DNA from: an uncultured Gammaproteobacteria bacterium
Lineage (GTDB): Bacteria > Patescibacteriota > Patescibacteriia > Magasanikbacterales > UBA922
Length of the DNA: 64,000 nt
Assembly (NCBI GenBank): GCA_964519725.1
Contig: CAZFKS010000006.1
Span: 355-64,354, forward strand
Direction of reading: 5' to 3'
A program made the position numbers and the translations under genes. Position 1 is the stretch's first letter; each line of letters opens with the position of its first letter. Positions 3,585 through 13,196 of this stretch are shown one piece after another. The notes below the pieces were generated by a model. The model made no database searches and was not told the origin of the DNA. It saw only the letters and a list, made by a program, of their open reading frames with translations.

Positions 3585-4943
3585 TTATTTTCGCCAACTA
3601 ATAGTAAAACACGCTCCGCTATTAGGTAAGTTGCTGGCCGTAATAGTAGCGTTTAATTCTTGATTTAAAATATTTTTGGTTGTAGCTAAACCTAATCCGT
3701 GATTACTTCTTTTGCTTGTAACAAATGGTTCAAAAATAGTTTCTATTTGTTCAGGTGCAATTCCTGGTCCATTATCTTTAATGTTAATATAATTGTAAGC
3801 AGTGTCACTAGACAAAGTGACTGTAATCTGGGCGTTTTTGTGAGTTTGGTGGAAAGCTTCAATACCATTAGTTAGAAGATTTACAATTGCACGCTCAAAT
3901 CGCACTGGATCACAGTAAGCATAAATTTTATTTTCCTTAATAAAATTAAGGTTAATTCCTTTTTGATTAGCTTCATACTGTACAGCCATAATTGCTTGCT
4001 CGAGTGCTTTTCGAATGTTAATTCTTTGTGGTTTTGATTGTTGTCTAAGTTCGTCTTTAATTTGTTTGGCTAATCTAATTAAACGATTAGTGATTCTGAC
4101 AGCTTGTTTAATTCGCTCAGTAATTTCTGCTGACTGAGAAAAAGAAATATTTTTCAGTTCCTGAATATGTAATGACAAGGCTGTTAGGGGATTAACTAAA
4201 TCATGAAATAAACCAGCCGAGGCGCGACCAATGGTGACTAGGTGTTCAATTTGGTTTAAGTGATACAACTGGGCTTCTTCTAAAACTTTAGCTTTTTCTT
4301 CAGTCTGTCTGGCACGGCGTAAACTAGTGTCAATATCACTGAGAACTAGTTTAATAATAAACACAAATATCAGTAAAATTCCCATGATTTCAAAAAGATA
4401 CATGTGGTTTGGTAGTAATTGCATCCAACTTAGGTCCACCGCTAAAATGGCTTGTTGGTGCAAATACATAATGAGGCCAAGGTAACTTCCAACCAAAATA
4501 ACCATTATTAAGGCTACTCTGATACTAATCAGAAGACTAACCAAAATAATTAGTAGGCCAAGGCCTAAAAGTGGGATTGGTGAAAGTGTACCCCAGCGGG
4601 TCAATAAATAAAGGGTAGGAATCGCGAGAGCAAGGAGAATGATGCTTCGAACAATTTTCCAAAAACCTTTTTTTATGAGCCAAATAGCACTGCTGCCAAT
4701 ACTGAAGCAAAGCAGTGAAATGAGGAATAATTGGCCGTGCCAAGACGACTGAAAGAGGAGTGTCAAGGATAAAAACCAGAGACTAAATAGTATGGAAAGA
4801 ACACTGTAAGCAAATACCAAAATTACTAAAATGCGCTCACGGCCCAAACCGTTTTCACGGTGTGAGATATTCCACAGTGTTTCAAATTGACTGTAGATTG
4901 TGTGGTACTTGGAGCGCACAGAGATTACAATTAACCAGACCAA
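3585..4943 (-). CDS. sensor histidine kinase (membrane-bound; HisKA + HATPase_c)
   Basis: The N-terminal ~200 aa carry several hydrophobic segments. H-box LFHDLVNPLTAL, N-box NLLTNGIEA, G1 DNGPGIAPE, G2 GLGLA are all present. The track start is a TTG at 4941-4943 and the true start is uncertain. Confidence 0.8.
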   Translation of the reverse strand: MVWLIVISVRSKYHTIYSQFETLWNISHRENGLGRERILVILVFAYSVLSILFSLWFLSLTLLFQSSWHGQLFLISLLCFSIGSSAIWLIKKGFWKIVRSIILLALAIPTLYLLTRWGTLSPIPLLGLGLLIILVSLLISIRVALIMVILVGSYLGLIMYLHQQAILAVDLSWMQLLPNHMYLFEIMGILLIFVFIIKLVLSDIDTSLRRARQTEEKAKVLEEAQLYHLNQIEHLVTIGRASAGLFHDLVNPLTALSLHIQELKNISFSQSAEITERIKQAVRITNRLIRLAKQIKDELRQQSKPQRINIRKALEQAIMAVQYEANQKGINLNFIKENKIYAYCDPVRFERAIVNLLTNGIEAFHQTHKNAQITVTLSSDTAYNYINIKDNGPGIAPEQIETIFEPFVTSKRSNHGLGLATTKNILNQELNATITASNLPNSGACFTISWRK

Positions 4944-5171: not shown

Positions 5172-5202
5172 TAGCCAAAAAATAACCGACTTATTAAGTC
5201 GG
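5172..5202 (-). terminator. Rho-independent terminator overlapping the response-regulator stop codon
   Basis: On the minus strand, CCGACTTAATAAGTCGG forms a perfect 8-bp stem containing the TAA stop. It is followed by TTATTTTTTGG. Confidence 0.5.
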
Positions 5203-5865
5203 TATGATTAGTTTATAGCCTCGGCCCGGAACAGTGTGAATTAATTTTTTGTCAGTGACTGTTTGTAATTGTTTACGTAGCTCACAGAGATTACTTTCTA
5301 AAGTGTTAGACCACTGATTGGAATTAAGGTTCCAAATTTTTTCCAAAATAGTGGCGCGAGTGACAATTTTGCCAGCGTATTTGGCTAAATACTCGAGAAG
5401 CTCGTATTGTTTTTTGGGTAAATTTAGCACACGCCGACCAGCACGGACAATTTTCTGGGTAGTATCAATGGTAATTGGACCAATTTTAAGCGGCACTATG
5501 GCCGCTTGAGTTCGTCTTTGTAAAGCGCGCATGCGCGCTAATAGTTCTAGGGCGGAAAACGGTTTAGTTAAGTAATCGTCAGCGCCAATTTCTAAGAGAT
5601 TAATTTTGGTAGTTAAATCATTCACCACTGTTAGAACTAAAATTGGAATATTTTTTCCTCTAGCTCTTAGTTCAGCGCACACATTGTACCCATTTTGTTT
5701 AGGTAAATTGTGGTCCAAGATAATTGCGTCATAGTGATTGGTTACCGCTAATTCAAAACCAGTGTAACCATTGTGGGCACAATCAACTGCGTAGAGTGCA
5801 CTACTCAAAGTGGCTTTGAGACTGGTGCATAGCTCTATGTCATCATCAATGATGAGTGCTTTCAT
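5194..5865 (-). CDS. OmpR-family response regulator (REC + winged-helix)
   Basis: From the ATG at 5865: MKALIIDDDIELC...DAIILDHNLP...LVLT...DDYLTKPF..., with C-terminal LLEYLAKYAGKIVTRATILEKIW...HTVPGRGYKL. The track ORF 5194..6279 is an unrealistic N-terminal extension into the next gene. Confidence 0.85.
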   Translation of the reverse strand: MKALIIDDDIELCTSLKATLSSALYAVDCAHNGYTGFELAVTNHYDAIILDHNLPKQNGYNVCAELRARGKNIPILVLTVVNDLTTKINLLEIGADDYLTKPFSALELLARMRALQRRTQAAIVPLKIGPITIDTTQKIVRAGRRVLNLPKKQYELLEYLAKYAGKIVTRATILEKIWNLNSNQWSNTLESNLCELRKQLQTVTDKKLIHTVPGRGYKLIIPT

Positions 5866-6022
5866 ACTGGAGCAGTATATGCACAGATTTTTTAGTTTGT
5901 AAATACGCGGACCATAAATTGCCAACCACTGGGCACAAAAGTTATGCACAATGGGAAGCGCGGCAGTCAGATTGACCAGATCTGACTGCCGGTTTTGAGG
6001 TGGGTTCCCCTCGGGAGAGGGG

Positions 6023-8032
6023 CTAGAGGTTGGGGTCGCAGGCGTCGCCGATGTGGTCTTTGTCTGAATCAAGCTGGTCGACGTTTTTTGTTGACCAGCA
6101 ATTGTCGAGACCGACCACGTTACACCCAGGCGTGTCGTCCGCCGTGATGCAACATATCTGCGGCAAGAAGTATTCGGCGAACATGATGCAGTCGAGAAGG
6201 TCATTCTCGTTGTCACCGAAGCCATCATTGTCAGCGTCGGCGTCGTTGCCGTCATCTTGCCACTTGTCCCCGTCGACATTCACCTGGGAGCAGGAATTTT
6301 TTGGCGCATTGGGGTACGCCGGATCGCGGGGAAGGTGAAAGCAGTCGACCGCAGGGTCGCACGCATCGAACGTGCAGTTGTCAGCGTCGCTACACAGGCT
6401 AAAGACCTGAGTAAAGATGCAGCCCGTTGCCGGGGCGCAGCTGTCCTGAGTGCAACCAACTCCGTCGTCGCAGACGATTGCGCTGTGAACGCATTCGCCC
6501 GTGACTTGGTCACAGGAGTCAGTGGTGCAGGCGCTTTGGTCGTCGCAGTCTTTGTTGTTACCGCTCGTGCAGGACGAGTTAGCACAAAAATCTGCGACTG
6601 TGCAGGGAACGCCGTCGTCGCAGGGTGCGGTGTTGGCCGCGTACTTGCAGCCGGTTTCGGGGTTGCACGTGTCGTCCGTGCACGGGTTCTGGTCGTCGCA
6701 GTTAAGCAACGCCAAATGCACACACGCACCACTGACACAGTGGTCAGAAGTTGTGCAGGCATCGCCGTCTGAGCAGGGAACATCATTGCTGAGATTCCCG
6801 AACAAACAGCCTGAGCCAGGAACGCACGTGTCGTAGGTGCACGGATTGGAGTCCGTACACGGTGTGGTCGTGTGCTGACAGCCCGAGTTTGGGTTGCAGC
6901 TGTCGACCGTACACGCGTTGTTGTCGTCACAGTCCGTGGGCGTGCTCGTGCACGTCCCAGTCTCGGGATTGCACATCTCCGAGCTGGTGCAGAGATTGCC
7001 ATCTGCGCACGAAATTGTAGTGACGAACTGACACCCGGAGTTCGGGTTGCACGAATCATTCGTGCAGAGATTGTCATCGTTGCAGGTGAGTGGGGTTTGA
7101 CCCACACAGTCACCGACATCGGTGCAAACATCGTCAGTGGTACACAGGTTGTGATCGTCGCAGCTTTGCCCCGGAACTGGGACTGGATTGCACTGGCCTG
7201 AGGTCGGTTCACACCGATTCTCAAAGCACGGATCCGGCGCCTCAGCGCAGGACACGATCGTATTTACGTCAACGACGCACTTGGTATTTTCACACACCAA
7301 GTCTCCGTTACAGAGATTAGCGTCGTTTTTGTCAGCGCAGTCAGTGCTGGTCTCACAGTCGCACACATTGGTGCCGGAAACGCAGACACTGTCAGCGCAA
7401 ACATCGTCGATTGTGCACGGGTTGTTGTCACTGCACGCGGACGTGTTGTCCGTGTGCTCGCAACCCTGAGCAGGATTGCAGTGATCGTCCGTGCAGACGT
7501 TGTCGTCGTCACAGTCGTCGTCCGCACAGAGCGGCGGAACGAAAGTGTCGACGTCATCACTGTCTGACGATTCTGCGTCCGGTGGTGTCTCGACATCAGG
7601 TGCGACTGAGTCGACTGTATCTTCGACATCATCGAACGAAGGAATGTCCTCGTCGGCGGTTTCCTCACTGGCCCAGGTATCGGGCTCAGTTTCGGAATCC
7701 TCCTCTGTGTCCAGTGCGACCCAGGTGTCGACAGCGTCTCCCGTAACTTCCTTTTCGTGGACGTCGTCAGCGACCAGGTCGGTCGACTGGTAGACATCTT
7801 CACGTGGGAAGATGGTCTGGCACGCGTCACCCACGCCGTCACCATCGCTGTCGAGCTGGTCCGGGTTGGGCACTCCTCGACAGTTGTCGAGGAAGTTCGG
7901 GATCTTGTCCAAGTCCGGGTCAGCCGCACACTCTTCTTCGCTGAAGCACTTGCCGTCCGGGTTGAAGTTGAAGCCGCAGCTAGCGGCGGTGAGGTTGAGG
8001 AAGAAGATGGCGAAGCACTTGAAAGAATTCAT
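6023..8032 (-). CDS. secreted, acidic cysteine-rich tandem-repeat protein with thrombospondin-type-3-like Ca-binding motifs at both ends
   Basis: The ATG at 8032 is preceded by AGGAGG-N5 and followed by signal-peptide-like MNSFKCFAIFFLNLTAAS. At least 11 modules resemble CDDxNxCTxDxCxPxxGC. DQLDSDGDGVGDAC (N-terminus) and DQLDSDKDHIGDACD plus DDGNDADADNDGFGDNEND (C-terminus) are TSP3-like. The gene is conspicuously GC-rich compared with its flanks. Confidence 0.75.
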   Translation of the reverse strand: MNSFKCFAIFFLNLTAASCGFNFNPDGKCFSEEECAADPDLDKIPNFLDNCRGVPNPDQLDSDGDGVGDACQTIFPREDVYQSTDLVADDVHEKEVTGDAVDTWVALDTEEDSETEPDTWASEETADEDIPSFDDVEDTVDSVAPDVETPPDAESSDSDDVDTFVPPLCADDDCDDDNVCTDDHCNPAQGCEHTDNTSACSDNNPCTIDDVCADSVCVSGTNVCDCETSTDCADKNDANLCNGDLVCENTKCVVDVNTIVSCAEAPDPCFENRCEPTSGQCNPVPVPGQSCDDHNLCTTDDVCTDVGDCVGQTPLTCNDDNLCTNDSCNPNSGCQFVTTISCADGNLCTSSEMCNPETGTCTSTPTDCDDNNACTVDSCNPNSGCQHTTTPCTDSNPCTYDTCVPGSGCLFGNLSNDVPCSDGDACTTSDHCVSGACVHLALLNCDDQNPCTDDTCNPETGCKYAANTAPCDDGVPCTVADFCANSSCTSGNNKDCDDQSACTTDSCDQVTGECVHSAIVCDDGVGCTQDSCAPATGCIFTQVFSLCSDADNCTFDACDPAVDCFHLPRDPAYPNAPKNSCSQVNVDGDKWQDDGNDADADNDGFGDNENDLLDCIMFAEYFLPQICCITADDTPGCNVVGLDNCWSTKNVDQLDSDKDHIGDACDPNL

Positions 8033-8091: not shown

Positions 8092-8144
8092 AAATTGCTT
8101 CGGAGTTTAATGACACAGAGTATCACTAAAATCCGAAGCAATTT
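8092..8144. promoter_or_regulatory. 13-bp perfect inverted repeat upstream of the Cys-repeat gene
   Basis: AAATTGCTTCGGA (8092-8104) pairs with TCCGAAGCAATTT (8132-8144), 27-nt spacer. On the plus strand it is followed by GGTCATTTTTTCC. Confidence 0.3.
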
Positions 8145-8240
8145 GGTCATTTTTTCCACCTCATGTAAAGAACAGTCACTACGCCTACTAAAGGTGTAGT
8201 AGCCAAACATCATAGCAATAATGCGGCTAAAAGTCAATAT

Positions 8241-8369: not shown

Positions 8370-8444
8370 TGGTGGACCAGACGGGAATTGAACCCGCAAT
8401 TTCAGCTTTGCAGGAAGATGTTTTACCAGTTAAACTACTGGCCC
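8370..8444 (-). tRNA. tRNA-like gene (75 nt, CCA encoded), possibly tRNA-Cys(GCA); anticodon stem non-canonical
   Basis: Minus-strand parse: acceptor GGGCCAG/CTGGTCC, U8, D-arm GTTT-AACTGGTA-AAAC with G18G19, T-arm GCGGG-TTCAATT-CCCGT, discriminator A, CCA. The anticodon loop CTGCAAA gives GCA. Only 3 of 5 anticodon-stem pairs (TCTTC/GCTGA) form. An A/T-rich 12-bp inverted repeat (8339-8366) follows immediately. Confidence 0.55.
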
Positions 8445-8609
8445 TTGGTCCACCGTATTTAACGTAACAAAAATATTTACAAACAACAAAGCCTCTTAAA
8501 AAGAGGCCGTGTTGCGCAAAGTTTTAGTTTTTCCAGTAGTTCTGGAAACATCTTCCTACTGCGAATTATAAGGTATAAAAAACCTTTGTCAAGTGTATAA
8601 TCCGGTGAA

Positions 8610-10466
8610 TTACTGCACGCGCACGCCTTTTTCTTGCGCAAAATCATCAGAGTTTAAACTCGCATCTAAATTGTAATTGCCGCTAGAAATTATTTCATTA
8701 ATAAAATTATCATGCGCACTAGCGTGAATGTTGGTGAGTAACAATGGAATAGTGCCGCGTTGCGCTTCGGTTGGTGTAATTGCTAACTCAACATTTATTT
8801 GTGCGCTTTCGTGCGCTGGCAAATCATTGGTTTGCCAGGTTAATGTGCGTGTACTTGCATTGTAAATTGGTTCGCGGCCACGACTAACATTACTTTTACC
8901 AGTAAAGGTAACGCCAGGTGCAAGTGTAGCCGACATTGAAACTGTGTCAGTTTCGCTTGTGCCGTTTTGCAAAGTTAAGAGCGCCCAGTATTTTGTTTCT
9001 TTGCCAACTTTTGGTGGCAGTGGACCACGACCAAGTTGGTCACCTTCCAGCGAGTAGTAATGTGCATCTGGAATTAAACGCAAACTAGTGCCAATTGGTA
9101 AGCCTGGCGTGGTGTAAGATTTTTCAAACAAAACAGGGCTGGCTTTAGTGCGAGCGCTCGTACGAATTGGGACATTTAAATTTAAATCAGTTTGGCCAGT
9201 TGGGAAATTAATAATTGGAATGGTGACGGAAACAACTTTACTTTGGCCTGGTAATAAAGTGGCGAGTTCAGAAATTTCTTTACTTGTAATCATGAGTGCA
9301 TTATTTTTTATCGGGTAGGGGTTATTGGCGCGCAGAGCTATGGCATTAATATTGCTTGGTAAACTAATATTTAGGGCCACGTCATTTAAGGTAATATCAC
9401 CAGTGTTAGCAACGGTAATGTTTAAAGCACTGCTTTGGCCTGGAGCTAATTTAGTTTTTTCCCAGCTACTTGAAATAGTAATATCTGGGCGCACCACTTT
9501 GGCCCGCATGGTGGCTGGGGTTTGGGAAATGTCAGTACTATTAATTGTTACAATTGGAGTGAAATCTAACAATAATTCCTTGGTCTCGGCAGGTAGATTG
9601 GTGGTGATGGCGACTGAACTAGTGGCGCTTTGGCCAGCCGTTAGGGCGGGTAATTGCCAAGTGTTGTTTTTAATTTCACCAGTGCTTGGGTTTTTGAATT
9701 GAATGGTGGTATGGTCTGGTGTGGTGACGCGAATTTCCGCAGCTGGAGAATTAGTGCGGTAAATATTTTTGACCACGAGTTGGCTATCAAAAGTACCTTG
9801 ACTGTAAATAGTGTCTGGTGCGGTAATAGTGGCCGTCAAAACCGAACCACGAGTAATACCAAGTAAAGAGGCGCCGCGGACTTCGTAATTGGTGTGACTT
9901 GGTTGGTGATAAACCAGCTCGGCTGCAAATTTAGTGTCAGTATTTGGGGCAGCAAAAAAGCGGCCGGTTAATTTAACTTCAGCGCCAGTTTTTGGGCGGG
10001 CAGTTTTCAGGGTGACTGAACCAGTGCTGGTCACATACGTGCCAGATTCAACCTGGGTTAATAAAAATCCTGGCGGCAAATTAAAATGTAAAACCGGATC
10101 AATCAGGTCAACCTGACTATTGTTTTGGTAGGCTGCAATAAGGATAATATCTTCACCACTCAGCACCCGACCAGCCTGATCTGGGTTTGGTTCAGTGGCG
10201 GCTACCTCTAACTTTAGGTCAACTAATTTGGTAATAGTTGGGTCATAAAAATACCAAAACGTCGCCAGGCCACCAATTACAAATATGGAAGCCAATAAAA
10301 GCATGTCAAAAATAAAGAGCTTGCGCGCGTGGGAGAATTTTAAGTGATATTTTTGTTGATAGTGCCATTCTAGAAAATGAATCGGGGAAAGAAGAAAAGC
10401 TAAAAACCACCGGTGTGGTTTGTGTAATAAGTGGTGGCGCGTAAGATGTTCACTAACAAATTTCAT
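8610..10466 (-). CDS. membrane-anchored cell-surface protein, Thr/Ser/Asn-rich with CARDB/DUF11-like repeats
   Basis: The ATG at 10466 opens a short N-terminal cytoplasmic stretch and one TM helix (FIFDMLLLASIFVIGGLATFWYFY). The ~540-aa exterior has motifs like LAPGQSSALNITVANTGDITLNDVALNISLP. Confidence 0.6.
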   Translation of the reverse strand: MKFVSEHLTRHHLLHKPHRWFLAFLLSPIHFLEWHYQQKYHLKFSHARKLFIFDMLLLASIFVIGGLATFWYFYDPTITKLVDLKLEVAATEPNPDQAGRVLSGEDIILIAAYQNNSQVDLIDPVLHFNLPPGFLLTQVESGTYVTSTGSVTLKTARPKTGAEVKLTGRFFAAPNTDTKFAAELVYHQPSHTNYEVRGASLLGITRGSVLTATITAPDTIYSQGTFDSQLVVKNIYRTNSPAAEIRVTTPDHTTIQFKNPSTGEIKNNTWQLPALTAGQSATSSVAITTNLPAETKELLLDFTPIVTINSTDISQTPATMRAKVVRPDITISSSWEKTKLAPGQSSALNITVANTGDITLNDVALNISLPSNINAIALRANNPYPIKNNALMITSKEISELATLLPGQSKVVSVTIPIINFPTGQTDLNLNVPIRTSARTKASPVLFEKSYTTPGLPIGTSLRLIPDAHYYSLEGDQLGRGPLPPKVGKETKYWALLTLQNGTSETDTVSMSATLAPGVTFTGKSNVSRGREPIYNASTRTLTWQTNDLPAHESAQINVELAITPTEAQRGTIPLLLTNIHASAHDNFINEIISSGNYNLDASLNSDDFAQEKGVRVQ

Positions 10467-10521: not shown

Positions 10522-10854
10522 TTATTCTGGTTTAATGAGTTTTGAACTAGGGGAGTAGAGAGTGTTATTGATTTTCCATTGATCCACATATTGTCCGATC
10601 CCTTTTTGGTTAGATTTGTTTCTAACCGTGGTTTTGCGCTGTGACCACTTAACTAAGCTTTCAAAGTTAATTTTATACCGGCCAGCCACGACCACGTAGG
10701 TAATCTCGTGGTCTTTGATGGCCCGGCGAATAGTTTGGGGGTTAACCCCAAACAGGCGAGCCGCCTCTGAGATAGAGACTCGAATCACTTCTTTACCTTG
10801 GGCTAAAGCACTCTGGTCATTTTGGTTTATTTCGTTTGGAAGGTTTTGTTCCAT
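10522..10854 (-). CDS. small helix-turn-helix DNA-binding protein (excisionase/HTH_17-like)
   Basis: ISEAARLFGVNPQTIRRAIKDHEITYVVVAGRYKINFESLVKW is a Xis/MerR-type wHTH. The ATG at 10854 is divergent from the sigma-factor gene. Confidence 0.6.
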   Translation of the reverse strand: MEQNLPNEINQNDQSALAQGKEVIRVSISEAARLFGVNPQTIRRAIKDHEITYVVVAGRYKINFESLVKWSQRKTTVRNKSNQKGIGQYVDQWKINNTLYSPSSKLIKPE

Positions 10855-10956
10855 ATGAAATTATTTTTTGTATAAACAAATATTAACAAATTTTAGGTTT
10901 TTTGTCAAGTTGGGGGTAAAAAGCAGGTTTCTAGCTAATTGGGAAAACATTCTATT

Positions 10957-10967
10957 TTTGTGTGCTA
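10957..10967 (+). promoter_or_regulatory. extended -10-like element (TGcTATGAT) oriented toward the ECF sigma gene
   Basis: gtgTGCTATGATg lies in the 375-bp intergenic region. No clean -35 at 17 bp. The coordinates are approximate (counted by hand from the line numbering). Confidence 0.3.
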
Positions 10968-11160
10968 TGATGTATACATTTATATTAAATAATAGTACAA
11001 TATTGTATACAAAACAATAAAACTAGCCCTCCTTGGATTAAGCCTAAGAAGCGGCCTAGCTCAGGTGGGGAGGTAGGCTCAGTAAACCCAACTTATCCTT
11101 ATATATGGCCTTATTTAAGTTGTTTTTTCTCCCTGGTTAGTGTATACTGTCCTTAATACA

Positions 11161-11210
11161 AAAAAGTGTGAAGTGAGGTTAAAGTGTTTCCTCAGGTGTA
11201 ACACTTTTTT
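11161..11210 (+). terminator. terminator/attenuator-like hairpin with T-run in the leader of the ECF sigma gene
   Basis: AAAGTGTT (11181-88) pairs with AACACTTT (11200-07), followed by TTTTTT. A second upstream copy AAAAAGTGT (11161-69) can pair with the same 3' arm, so two mutually exclusive structures are possible. Confidence 0.35.
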
Positions 11211-11229
11211 ATTCCCGCCGTCTTCTTAT

Positions 11230-11778
11230 ATGCCAGCGACCATAGCTGAAAAAAAACTGGTTTACCAGGTAATCAAAAATCGTGATCCACAGGCCTTTGC
11301 GGCTCTGTACGATTTGTACGTTGGTAAGATATACCGGTTTATCTTCTTTAAAGTTTCTAAAAAAGAAGACGCTGAAGATCTGACCAGTGATGTCTTTCTA
11401 AAGACCTGGCAGTATTTGGCAGAAAAAACTGACCGTGAAGTCAAAAGCTTTAGTGGTCTTATTTATCAAGTGGCACGCAATGTACTGGTTGATTGGTACC
11501 GACTCCGTGCGAGTCGTCCAGAAACCCCACTTGATCTGGCCCCTGAAATTAGTGTGGATGAAAAAGCCTTTGCAGCCCTTGATGTGAATCAGGCCGCCAG
11601 TGAAGTGCTCAAAGTTGTGCGCCAGTTAAAACAAGAGTACCAAGAAATTATTTTGCTCCGGTACATTGAAGAACTATCAATTAAAGAAATTAGCCATATT
11701 TTAAAAAAGTCACCAGTAAGCGTGCGAGTGACTTTGCACCGGGCCATTACGGTTTTAAAAAAAGCGCTTCATTTATGA
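11230..11778 (+). CDS. ECF (sigma-70 family, group 4) RNA polymerase sigma factor
   Basis: From the ATG at 11230: region 2 LTSDVFLKTWQY and region 4 ILLRYIEELSIKEISHILKKSPVSVRVTLHRAITVLKKAL. The 11140 start would place the hairpin inside the CDS. Confidence 0.8.
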   Translation: MPATIAEKKLVYQVIKNRDPQAFAALYDLYVGKIYRFIFFKVSKKEDAEDLTSDVFLKTWQYLAEKTDREVKSFSGLIYQVARNVLVDWYRLRASRPETPLDLAPEISVDEKAFAALDVNQAASEVLKVVRQLKQEYQEIILLRYIEELSIKEISHILKKSPVSVRVTLHRAITVLKKALHL

Positions 11779-13007
11779 ACGAGCTCAAGCACAATTTACG
11801 CGCTGTAAAGACCTTAGCTGAAGTTAACCCTGATGCTGAGTGGGTTAAGGCTGGCCGCAGTCGCTTGCTCTCTCAAATTAGTAATACGGTTATTCCAGTT
11901 GATAAGCCAGTTGTGGTAGATACTGCTCATGCCTTTTGGTTCCAATTTCAATCTAGTGCGGTCGTACGCACCTTACGCCCAGCTTTGACTGCGCTTGGGG
12001 TAGCGGCCCTGGCCACTGGTGGTTGGATTGCAAGTGTAAGTGCTTCAGTAAATAGTTTGCCTGGCGACCGGTTGTGGGTAGTTAAGCGCGCGGCGCAAAA
12101 CACTGAACTCGCGGTCCGAAGTTTGGGTGCTAGTGACTCAGAAAAAGTGCAATTACAATTAAATTTAGCGAAAAATCGGGCTGATGATATTAAAAAAGCC
12201 TTTAGTAAAAAATTAACCCCAGAAGCCAGTGCGACTGATCGGGAAAAAGCCGTAAAAGATCTGGCTGTTGCTGTAAAAGACGTACAAAATGTAGTTAAAG
12301 AAGTTTCAAGTAGTGTAAGTGATCAAGTTAAAGAAAATGGTAAAGATAAGCCGCTTGAGTCAGTGGAAACAGTTAAAGGTGTGGCCAAGGACACGACTGA
12401 AATTGCCAAGAGCTTGGCTTCAACCGTGGCCTCTTCAACTGCTGTGGGAGTTGATGTGACTAAACAAGTTTTGGAAACTGTTAAGGTGGTAAATCAAACT
12501 GGAATTAGCGCTGTTGAGGCCGTGATTCAGGGTCCGGCTGGCCTGGCTGAAACTGGCCAAGCTAATAATGTTAAGAATATTGTTTCCGAAAAAGTAGTTG
12601 ATCTGGTACAATCTACCGAAGCTTTAAAAATTGATCTCAGAAATTCGCTCGGAATTTCTGCACCAAGTACCACCGTTGAAACTAAACCGCTCATGCTTAC
12701 TGTACCAACAGCAACCGGAACAGTCGTCGTTACTTTGCCGCTGAACACTAGAACTAATTTGTTTGACAAAATGTTGCTAAATAGTCCAAGTAGTTCAGCT
12801 AGTATTATTAAAGACGCTGAACAAAAAACCGCTGATATTCACCAATCAGCCGTAGACATTAAAAAGAGTATTGATAATGGTAATTTGCAAGAAGCCGTGA
12901 ATAAGTTGAGAGATCTGAATGAAACAGCCGTGACCACGCAACAACAATTAATTGAAACAAAAACCAAAACCGTGGTTGAGGATAAAACTCCTGAACCAAT
13001 CAAATAA
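11775..13007 (+). CDS. putative membrane-anchored anti-sigma factor / DUF5667-like protein
   Basis: ATGA overlap with the sigma gene. ~75-aa N-terminus, one TM helix (LTALGVAALATGGWIASV), then a long K/E/A/V-rich helical extracytoplasmic region. Confidence 0.5.
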   Translation: MNELKHNLRAVKTLAEVNPDAEWVKAGRSRLLSQISNTVIPVDKPVVVDTAHAFWFQFQSSAVVRTLRPALTALGVAALATGGWIASVSASVNSLPGDRLWVVKRAAQNTELAVRSLGASDSEKVQLQLNLAKNRADDIKKAFSKKLTPEASATDREKAVKDLAVAVKDVQNVVKEVSSSVSDQVKENGKDKPLESVETVKGVAKDTTEIAKSLASTVASSTAVGVDVTKQVLETVKVVNQTGISAVEAVIQGPAGLAETGQANNVKNIVSEKVVDLVQSTEALKIDLRNSLGISAPSTTVETKPLMLTVPTATGTVVVTLPLNTRTNLFDKMLLNSPSSSASIIKDAEQKTADIHQSAVDIKKSIDNGNLQEAVNKLRDLNETAVTTQQQLIETKTKTVVEDKTPEPIK

Positions 13008-13196
13008 AGTTACACTCCGCTTACTGTCTGAGCCTCGCTAGATTTAGAAAAATCTGTCGAGGGCCATACAGTATGCGGCATCCGTAGGCAGAAAGGTCGA
13101 CCCGGTGAGGGCGCCATGCGGTTTTATTTACATGGATGTATTTGTAGACCCGTCCAATGGACGAGGCGCTACCAAATAGGTCCGAAAGATTAAATT
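13008..13196 (+). promoter_or_regulatory. GC-rich structured 5' leader of the S-layer-like gene
   Basis: Nested inverted repeat CCTCGctAGATTTagaaAAATCTgtCGAGG, palindromic GGTCGACC, and CGTCC-aat-GGACG. GC-rich in an AT-rich background. Confidence 0.3.

Follow-up and report, generated by a model that had tools for sequence, protein, structure and literature searches.

A GC-rich gene in a GC-poor Magasanikbacteria genome

The 64-kb stretch of contig CAZFKS010000006.1 analysed here (hereafter the window) carries on its minus strand, at 6023..8032, a gene for a cysteine-rich, acidic protein built largely from Dicty_CTDC repeats, whose base composition departs strongly from that of the surrounding DNA. 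Our reading, to which we give a probability of roughly 55%, is that the gene was acquired long ago from a Myxococcota-type lineage, has since been held GC-rich by a force specific to it, and encodes a surface protein of its host. Judged from the homologues of the neighbouring DUF11 gene, the host is one of the GC-poor Candidatus Magasanikbacteria, members of the Candidate Phyla Radiation (CPR), small and of groundwater type.

6023..8032, minus strand: coding sequence (CDS) of the Cys-rich acidic surface protein, 669 aa (open reading frame, composition, codon usage, Pfam Dicty_CTDC 132.8 bits)

The CDS starts with the ATG at 8032 and ends with the stop codon at 6023-6025, and an identical protein has been deposited at NCBI on a 67.5-kb contig. 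The longest open reading frame (ORF) across the interval runs from 8116 to 6023 on the minus strand, but its GTG start at 8116 was ruled out, as the N-termini of the orthologues and the Shine-Dalgarno sequence, AGGAGG at 8043-8038 just 5′ of ATG 8032, both point to the ATG. The GC content of the CDS is 57.3% (0.55, 0.47 and 0.70 at the first, second and third codon positions), compared with 41.3% for the window as a whole. Two-kilobase windows away from the gene have a mean of 40.7% GC with a standard deviation of 1.6 and a maximum of 44.2%, which makes the gene an outlier by about 10 standard deviations. Likewise, its GC content at third codon positions (GC3) of 0.70 compares with 0.30-0.46 in the other 50 ORFs of at least 100 aa, none of which exceeds 1.9% Cys. 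Codon preference is inverted for nearly every amino acid, e.g. TGC is used for 70% of Cys versus 28%, and GAC for 77% of Asp versus 31%. A preliminary description of this DNA, made from its letters alone, had put forward the GC anomaly, the atypical codon usage and at least ten overlapping spurious ORFs; all three held when measured, and we counted 13 or 14 overlapping ORFs of at least 60 aa on both strands, as is expected because GC-rich DNA is poor in stop codons.

GC3 is 0.85 in the segment for the signal peptide, 0.82 in the thrombospondin type-3 (TSP3) region, 0.59 in the linker, 0.67-0.73 in the repeat array and 0.74 in the tail. The GC content steps up at the start codon and drops within ∼100 nt past the stop codon, where three hairpins sit; the flanking non-coding DNA has host composition.

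The GC excess is conserved over saturating divergence

The upstream neighbour of the gene, a DUF11/CARDB protein, defines a syntenic slot. The features around this slot are:

8610..10466, minus strand: DUF11/CARDB membrane protein, upstream neighbour (Pfam)
8370..8444, minus strand: tRNA-Cys (GCA) between the DUF11 and Cys-rich genes (ARAGORN; Rfam tRNA 58.2 bits)
5194-5865, minus strand: OmpR-type response regulator, downstream (Pfam)
3585-4943, minus strand: histidine kinase, downstream (Pfam)

Full-length homologues of the DUF11 protein are 35-60% identical to it, and the named ones belong to Candidatus Magasanikbacteria or Patescibacteria. At least nine other loci (L083, L084, L086, L088, L101, L112, L133, L159 and L160) have a Cys-rich gene immediately downstream of DUF11, and L082 holds the start of such a gene only; L084 is identical to L085 and to L087, and 5 sites distinguish L088 from L089. 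The DUF11 contigs have a common upstream order that ends in a Wzy_C gene, a ∼230-aa gene, genes for proteins of 1,250 and 406 aa, a sigma factor, a helix-turn-helix (HTH) gene and DUF11. Downstream, the order DUF11, Cys-rich gene, response regulator, histidine kinase and p560 is kept in L084 and L086, and in L083 it is the same except that no histidine kinase was detectable. All seven orthologue proteins scanned passed the Pfam Dicty_CTDC cutoff. The L083 protein (697 aa) is colinear with the window protein from the signal peptide to the C-terminal TSP3 motif, with 39% identity overall and 67% over the region of residues 165-345. In L159 (GCA_964473715.1, 8147-10690) the Cys-rich gene, which has a 100-N gap inside it, was left uncalled, and the annotation has four short antisense ORFs in its place; gene callers appear to be misled by GC-rich genes when the CPR genome around them is GC-poor.

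GC3 was raised in every orthologue measured, ranging from 0.51 to 0.89 against a locus background of 0.22-0.68, an excess of 15-50 points that is seen irrespective of the GC content of the host. The 150 nt upstream of each gene have 35-51% GC. The individual values (gene/background) were:

Window: 0.70/0.34
L083: 0.70/0.33
L084: 0.51/0.36
L086: 0.64/0.29
L088: 0.65/0.46
L101: 0.59/0.24
L112: 0.89/0.68
L133: 0.72/0.22
L160: 0.62 (gene only)

The L112 locus, which was found with the Magasanikbacteria DUF11 profile at 39% identity, has itself 59% GC, versus 27-47% in its relatives.

At residues conserved between the window and L083 proteins, third positions were identical with a frequency of 0.509, and 0.494±0.022 is expected from codon usage. 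Because observation matches expectation, the synonymous sites of this pair have fully turned over; and because saturated orthologues in both lineages keep a high GC3, the anomaly is not a fading scar of transfer.

These results bear on the preliminary proposal of horizontal acquisition. A recent transfer from a Myxococcota-like, GC-rich donor, inserted beside a tRNA gene and not yet ameliorated, would account for the strong compositional outlier and for the adjoining tRNA gene, and the best non-self homologues do come from Myxococcota or Deltaproteobacteria metagenome-assembled genomes (MAGs) of 54-70% GC. It is nevertheless highly improbable in view of the colinear GC-rich orthologues in the same slot of at least nine other Magasanikbacteria loci, the saturation of their synonymous sites and the host composition of the flanking non-coding DNA. 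Moreover, no integrase, transposase or other mobility gene was found among the neighbours, the only direct repeats were those internal to the module array, none of them att-like, and the tRNA-Cys was absent from all 47 CPR and 60 non-CPR related loci scanned, where the few tRNAs are of other kinds. On account of its absence from these 107 loci and the lack of att-like repeats, we rejected the tRNA-Cys as an integration site or conserved partner; its adjacency is lineage-specific and probably coincidental. Thus, acquisition in its simple, recent form does not stand, whereas an ancient transfer of Myxococcota type is the likely origin.

An assembly chimera or a contaminating fragment in a CPR contig could also give an abrupt GC change at both gene ends. 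We consider the chance of this negligible, given that the same gene and context were recovered in independent assemblies (NCBI, Logan, ENA and JGI) and that the borders coincide exactly with the stop codon and with a start codon preceded by a Shine-Dalgarno sequence.

Further partial Cys-rich ORFs lie at a distance of 7-9 kb from DUF11 in CPR loci whose GC content is 40-45%. They have a GC content of 0.65-0.66 and a GC3 of 0.81-0.91, and one of the four carries a Cu-binding_MopE motif:

L091, 10209-10676, minus strand: GC-rich Cys-rich ORF
L110, 16920-17843, minus strand: GC-rich Cys-rich ORF
L123, 17094-17654, minus strand: GC-rich Cys-rich ORF
L156, 16923-17720, minus strand: GC-rich Cys-rich ORF

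In L117, a TSP3-bearing Cys-rich ORF (10584-12323, minus strand) has a GC3 of 0.40, which is only mildly raised. Several secreted Cys-rich proteins of this lineage may therefore share the GC excess.

Nature of the proposed GC-ward force

We tallied synonymous classes over five pooled orthologues. The frequency of C at Y-ending two-fold codons was 0.71 versus 0.31, that of G at R-ending two-fold codons 0.49 versus 0.24, and that of G+C at four-fold sites 0.63 versus 0.29, with C and G each approximately doubled; the apparent dominance of C results from the many residues with NNY codons (Cys, Asp and Asn). GC-ending codons were not enriched at conserved residues, with a Mantel-Haenszel odds ratio of 1.02 for the window gene and non-significant values for most other pairs. 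The Dicty_CTDC (hereafter CTDC) genes of other phyla match their own genomes: the gene in L014, a Chitinophagales (Bacteroidota) MAG of 47% GC, has a GC3 of 0.43 versus a background of 0.48, and in most of the Myxococcota and Planctomycetota loci listed GC3 lies within a few points of background. The excess is therefore not intrinsic to CTDC genes.

In a very abundant protein biased towards Cys, Asp, Asn and Thr, translational selection would favour NNC codons, which G34 tRNAs read without wobble, along with further optimal codons, and the adjacent tRNA-Cys would add supply. Third-position C indeed rises from 0.10-0.25 to 0.44-0.57 in seven of eight genes (0.31 in L084), and the window gene combines a strong Shine-Dalgarno sequence with a promoter-like site of its own, stable 3′ hairpins and the tRNA-Cys immediately upstream. 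However, the shift is equally GC-ward at R-ending (AAG, CAG and GAG) and NCG codons, which are not known to be optimal codons of GC-poor bacteria, and this rise, together with the missing link to conservation, argues against ordinary translational selection. The CTDC genes without excess in the 47% GC Bacteroidota MAG and in Myxococcota and the absence of the tRNA-Cys from all other loci scanned point in the same direction, and in CPR bacteria, which grow slowly, only a weak selected codon bias would be expected. We rate translational selection as decidedly unlikely. Genes for EF-Tu, S12, GroEL, RpoA and ribosomal proteins were found neither in the window nor in the CPR loci examined.

GC-biased gene conversion at a recombination hotspot of a variable surface protein was weighed next to it. 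When L086 (7466-12093) was compared with L159 (5421-10022), the flanks were 95% identical with a synonymous divergence (dS) of 0.07, versus 85% identity and a dS of 0.51-0.67 in the tract formed by HTH, DUF11 and three-quarters of the Cys-rich gene from its 5′ end. Such a mosaic points to exchange of alleles, or to faster divergence, of the two surface-protein genes, and the contrast in dS between DUF11 plus the 5′ part of the Cys-rich gene (0.5-0.7) and the flanking gene speaks for conversion. So do the symmetry of the shift, with G and C about doubled at four-fold sites, and its independence of conservation, both of which conversion predicts, and recombining bacterial genes have been reported to have higher GC3 (PMC4450053). 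Yet DUF11 in the same divergent tract has a host-like GC3 of 0.22-0.37, the excess begins and ends at the CDS borders, and 15-50 GC3 points are in our judgement very large for conversion alone. This explanation is unlikely.

Since the excess persists at saturation, occurs in all synonymous classes, is bounded by the CDS and is independent of conservation, a GC-ward pressure specific to the Cys-rich CDS must operate continuously. Of the possible causes, we favour selection acting on transcript or CDS composition, followed by GC-biased gene conversion and, in third place, a local A:T→G:C mutation bias. Strong compositional selection, the other explanation offered in the preliminary description, is closer to the data than a recent transfer. 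We tentatively raise the possibility, with more doubt than confidence, that the 15-50 GC3 points above the genome are upheld by a mechanism undescribed in bacteria, either selection on the base composition of one transcript or CDS, or a gene-targeted A:T→G:C bias.

Architecture of the Cys-rich protein

The 669-aa protein consists of 11.4% Cys and 16.7% Asp and, with 140 D/E versus 16 K/R, is an extreme polyanion. From N- to C-terminus, its features are:

7976..8032, minus strand: signal peptide ending at Cys19 (…LTAAS-C), presumably of lipoprotein type (sequence; AlphaFold helix at residues 2-17)
7817..7930, minus strand: TSP type-3 repeat, residues 35-72, predicted to bind Ca (Pfam TSP_3; alignments to COMP and TSP-1)
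7529..7807, minus strand: acidic D/E/T/S/P-rich linker, residues 76-168, predicted to be disordered (composition; pLDDT 33-38 over most of it)
6293..7528, minus strand: ∼16 four-Cys Dicty_CTDC modules, residues 169-580 (Cys spacing, Pfam in 10 stretches, AlphaFold2)
7145..7384, minus strand: irregular central element, residues 217-296, C-x-C-E…D-C…N-L-C-N-G-x-L-x-C… (alignment and regular expression)
6197..6265, minus strand: Asp-rich DxDxDG loop, residues 590-612 (…DDGNDADADNDGFGDNEND…), possible Ca2+ site (motif scan)
6032..6106, minus strand: C-terminal TSP3-like motif, residues 643-667 (DNCWSTKNVDQLDSDKDHIGDACDP) (resemblance at motif level)

In all orthologues the hydrophobic stretch is immediately followed by a Cys (LAGC, FVGC, AISC, VVGC, MVGC and LIGC), and the lipobox of the window protein, A-A-S-C19, is imperfect with respect to the pattern [LVI][ASTVI][GAS]-C. 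The signal sequence is probably of lipoprotein type, with Cys19 as membrane anchor.

The preliminary description had TSP3-like motifs at both termini, of which the N-terminal one was borne out. Pfam TSP_3 (cutoff 25 bits) matched a 66-aa fragment with 37.5 bits and the 168-aa N-terminus with 27.1 bits, although it was not reported in a scan of the whole protein, and the region aligns with the type-3 repeats of COMP (3fby, E 2.1e-18) and TSP-1 (1ux6, E 6.5e-13). The C-terminal motif reached 15.3 bits, below the cutoff, and aligned weakly with COMP and TSP-1; a search with a 123-aa C-terminal fragment of the protein gave no matches. At the equivalent C-terminal position the L160 orthologue scores 51.4 bits for TSP_3, and a DNC…D-x-D-x-D…C-D motif can be recognized there by eye in every other orthologue but L112. 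A motif scan placed DxDxDGxxD at residues 61 and 599; the Asp-rich loop that includes the latter is without profile support and has low pLDDT.

A secreted Cys-rich tandem-repeat protein with conserved Cys spacing had been predicted, as had an acidic D/E/S/T linker. Both were recovered: residues 169-564 hold 63 Cys with a spacing of ∼6-5-6-8, and residues 76-168 include 34 D/E among 93, an equivalent linker being present in every orthologue. The estimate of at least 11 modules of ∼24 aa was revised to ∼16 modules of 22-28 aa. The modules come in two flavours (Cys spacing 5,6 and 6,5) that alternate in the C-terminal half of the array. In an AlphaFold model built on 54 aligned sequences, the array forms successive β-hairpins with pLDDT 75-94, in contrast to values < 50 for the acidic linker and both termini.

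At the DNA level, module copies recur at multiples of ∼75 nt and share 61-83% identity, and Tandem Repeats Finder detected no array in the repeat region. Since the copies are only this similar and no array was detected, the module repeats are old, and we rejected a recent DNA-level amplification on the same grounds. The L088 gene, by comparison, contains an internal duplication of 134 nt (10674-10807 and 11139-11272; 93% identity) that covers linker and first module, so recent intragenic duplication does occur in the family, unlike in the window gene.

We propose that the protein is a membrane-anchored, Ca2+-binding and probably disulfide-bonded rod. Behind the signal peptide it would consist of a TSP3 repeat, a spacer of ∼90 residues, a rod of ∼16 modules and an Asp-rich tail with a TSP3-like motif. 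Loaded with Ca2+, it would probably project rigidly from the envelope as a structural or adhesive element and act with the adjacent DUF11/CARDB protein.

Relation to known protein families

Pfam PF00526, Dicty_CTDC, was the sole Pfam family on the full protein (132.8 bits vs a cutoff of 27, E 3.2e-39, 10 stretches). The modules agree with it in their period of 24-26 residues and in four conserved Cys in the pattern C-x-D-x-N-x-C-T-x-D-x-C-x-P-x-x-G-C, and 54 homologues show no variation at these Cys, Asp, Thr and Gly positions. CTDC members of Dictyostelium are extracellular matrix proteins, and the window protein likewise appears to be extracellular; it differs in being bacterial, from a CPR organism, and a probable lipoprotein with TSP3 repeats and an acidic spacer. 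A sequence search of the PDB gave no match to the array. The CTDC repeat has been listed among the repeat families without known structure (PMC8078820).

The modules had earlier been likened to the Myxococcus cysteine-rich repeat, an assignment that the Dicty_CTDC match replaces. TIGR02232, a repeat of TraA-type proteins, shares with the modules that it is a Cys-rich repeat of secreted proteins typical of Myxococcota, but its motif is a different one. This motif, CG[ND]G…GE-x-CDDGN…GDGC, was absent on direct reading of the 669-aa sequence, and the NCBIfam search gave no TIGR02232 match (E ≤ 1) for the window protein or for three Myxococcota homologues with a CGNG…CDDGN…GDGC stretch.

CTDC proteins of Myxococcota and some Planctomycetota, all annotated as hypothetical, have ∼1,000-1,170 aa, are encoded in multiple copies and mostly have a lipoprotein-like N-terminus. 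The Myxococcota proteins are 35-42% identical to the window protein over residues ∼170-570, and they have in common with it the post-signal Cys (79 of 119), the acidic linker, the alternating module flavours and the central CxCE…LCNG element (47 of 119 homologues by regular expression). They differ in being longer, in an extra N-terminal Cys-rich domain, in a CNGxDDDCDG motif and in a C-terminal CGNG…CDDGN…GDGC repeat plus tail; this repeat presumably resembles the TIGR02232 motif. TSP3 motifs are rare in Myxococcota-type homologues (4 of 119 by regular expression). The Myxococcota genes are arranged in tandem multi-copy arrays in DNA of 70% GC and have the composition of their own genomes.

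With thrombospondin and COMP type-3 repeats (PF02412; 3fby and 1ux6) the window protein shares the pattern DxDxDGxxDxxDNC…NxxQxDxDxDGxGDxC, which residues 35-72 fit. It has, however, one clear and one degenerate repeat rather than a contiguous wire of repeats, and the C-terminal lectin-like domain of thrombospondin is missing. The best solved analogue of the modelled array is the Cys-rich region in the heavy chain of the Entamoeba histolytica Gal/GalNAc lectin (9gjc_H; Foldseek E 1.5e-5, probability 0.96), where the predicted likeness lies in an elongated, Cys-rich, extracellular region of a surface adhesin. Sequence identity is 13% and TM-scores are 0.07-0.12, as expected for flexible rods; on this model the likeness is one of build only and is no evidence of homology or lectin activity. 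The protein is, by these comparisons, a new architecture made from the known families Dicty_CTDC and TSP3, a probable lipoprotein in the CPR. Our literature search on CTDC proteins of bacteria or CPR, and on GC-rich genes in Magasanikbacteria, returned nothing relevant.

Origin of the gene

The protein has 1,624 homologues, of which the named ones derive from Deltaproteobacteria or Myxococcales MAGs. Among species representatives, nearly every relative carries a Myxococcota label, the rest being some Planctomycetota and a few bins with other labels (e.g. Enterobacteriaceae), and these relatives match residues ∼170-570 only. A neighbour-joining tree built on the 180 central residues places the CPR sequences in one weakly supported group, in which the window and L083 are joined first by L086 and next by L112 with P0019; most of the 50 other sequences fall outside it. 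Nearly all CPR proteins show a C-terminal TSP3 motif, in contrast to the 4 of 119 Myxococcota-type homologues. As the family is expanded and native in Myxococcota and the CPR genes form one architectural subgroup, a single old transfer is most likely. We suggest that the gene entered an ancestor of this Magasanikbacteria group once, from a Myxococcota-type lineage, was then inherited vertically with shuffling of head domains and losses, and would since have been held GC-rich by a force specific to it.

Architectural subtypes track DUF11 clades. A TSP3 head is found at the N-terminus of the window, L083 and L160 proteins, another Cys-rich head in L082, L086 and L159, and L101 and L133 have in common a different central element. 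The second head, in L082 (12100-12500), L086 (10152-10600) and L159, reads …PPFGR-C-x-x-NEQCG…W-x-GYWV-x-C…CAYP. L082 is the closest relative of the window by DUF11 (60% identity), yet has the non-TSP3 head; because of this difference, the head domain must have been swapped between close lineages.

Recurrent acquisition or replacement of the gene from GC-rich donors in different Magasanikbacteria lineages would account for the high GC as well as for the missing synonymous similarity across lineages, and could also produce the variation of N-terminal heads (TSP3 vs the other Cys-rich domain), the mosaic locus of close relatives (85% vs 95% nucleotide identity), the other GC-rich Cys-rich ORFs elsewhere in CPR loci and an L112 central region no nearer to CPR than to Myxococcota. 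However, donors from a distant phylum, without homologous flanks, would have had to place the gene directly downstream of DUF11 every time, and the C-terminal TSP3 motif, the agreement of subtypes with DUF11 clades and the confinement of GC-rich DNA to the CDS are not what such replacement predicts. The L086/L159 tract looks instead like exchange within CPR, since it covers the GC-poor DUF11 gene too. On balance, we doubt that replacement occurred in this way.

Several observations weigh against a single old transfer followed by gene-specific maintenance in a surface protein. The monophyly of the CPR sequences is weakly supported, in a neighbour-joining tree without bootstrap, and L112 is as near to Myxococcota (0.62) as to CPR sequences (0.61). 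The saturation test relies on alignments of repeats that are possibly out of register. Many more distant Magasanikbacteria loci have no such gene in the slot and an apparent glycosyltransferase instead. A selective reason for GC-rich codons here is not known, CTDC genes elsewhere do without them, and the host-like GC3 of DUF11 in the divergent L086/L159 tract counts against gene conversion as the force. Lastly, it is from its sequence that the protein is taken to be a surface-located, disulfide-bonded, Ca2+-binding lipoprotein.

Neighbouring genes and signals

The two neighbours named in the preliminary description, a tRNA-like gene and a two-component system, proved genuine: the former is recognized as tRNA-Cys by ARAGORN and Rfam, and the latter comprises the OmpR-type response regulator and histidine kinase identified by Pfam. 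The tRNA-Cys is the only tRNA in the window and lies on the same strand directly upstream of the 11.4%-Cys gene. In L088, a tRNA-Glu (TTC) at 13068-13142 lies just downstream of the Cys-rich gene, which is also rich in Glu and Asp. The remainder of the window is a cluster for the envelope and for glycan biosynthesis, which encodes probable glycosyltransferases, a Wzy_C protein and a sigma factor of ECF type. Two candidate signals flank the Cys-rich gene:

8209..8237, minus strand: promoter-like TTGACT-17-(TG)TATGAT, ∼175 nt upstream of the ATG (consensus match only)
5926..6022, minus strand: three stable stem-loops right after the stop codon, without a U-tract (RNA fold -44.8 kcal/mol, z = -6.9 vs shuffles)

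The stem-loops are probably a terminator or 3′ stabilizer. Past them, the response-regulator gene has a promoter-like site at 5903-5874. A full 12/12 match to the sigma-70 consensus, TTGACA-16-TATAAT, is located at 8592-8565 right after the DUF11 stop codon, and a terminator-like hairpin at 8508-8490 stands between it and the tRNA-Cys. This element (8490-8592), to which no Rfam family matched, may represent a small RNA, a short leader, or the promoter of the tRNA together with a processing hairpin.

Implications

Anomalies in GC content and codon usage are the standard signal of recent transfer; here the anomaly is old and maintained, and the gene is thus a counter-example for the detection of horizontal transfer from composition. 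It also offers a tractable case in which to ask what holds a single bacterial gene far from the mutational equilibrium of its genome. To judge from the antisense miscall in L159, the CTDC family is probably under-annotated in CPR genomes.

For Magasanikbacteria, the DUF11/CARDB and CTDC proteins define a conserved envelope pair, which is a candidate surface or attachment apparatus and links the envelope of these bacteria to a protein family massively expanded in Myxococcota. The lineage-specific tRNA-Cys upstream of a gene with 11% Cys could, speculatively, be an adaptation of supply. Equally speculatively, a protein derived from Myxococcota might dock a presumed episymbiotic cell onto GC-rich hosts of Myxococcota type through homotypic or mimicking contacts.

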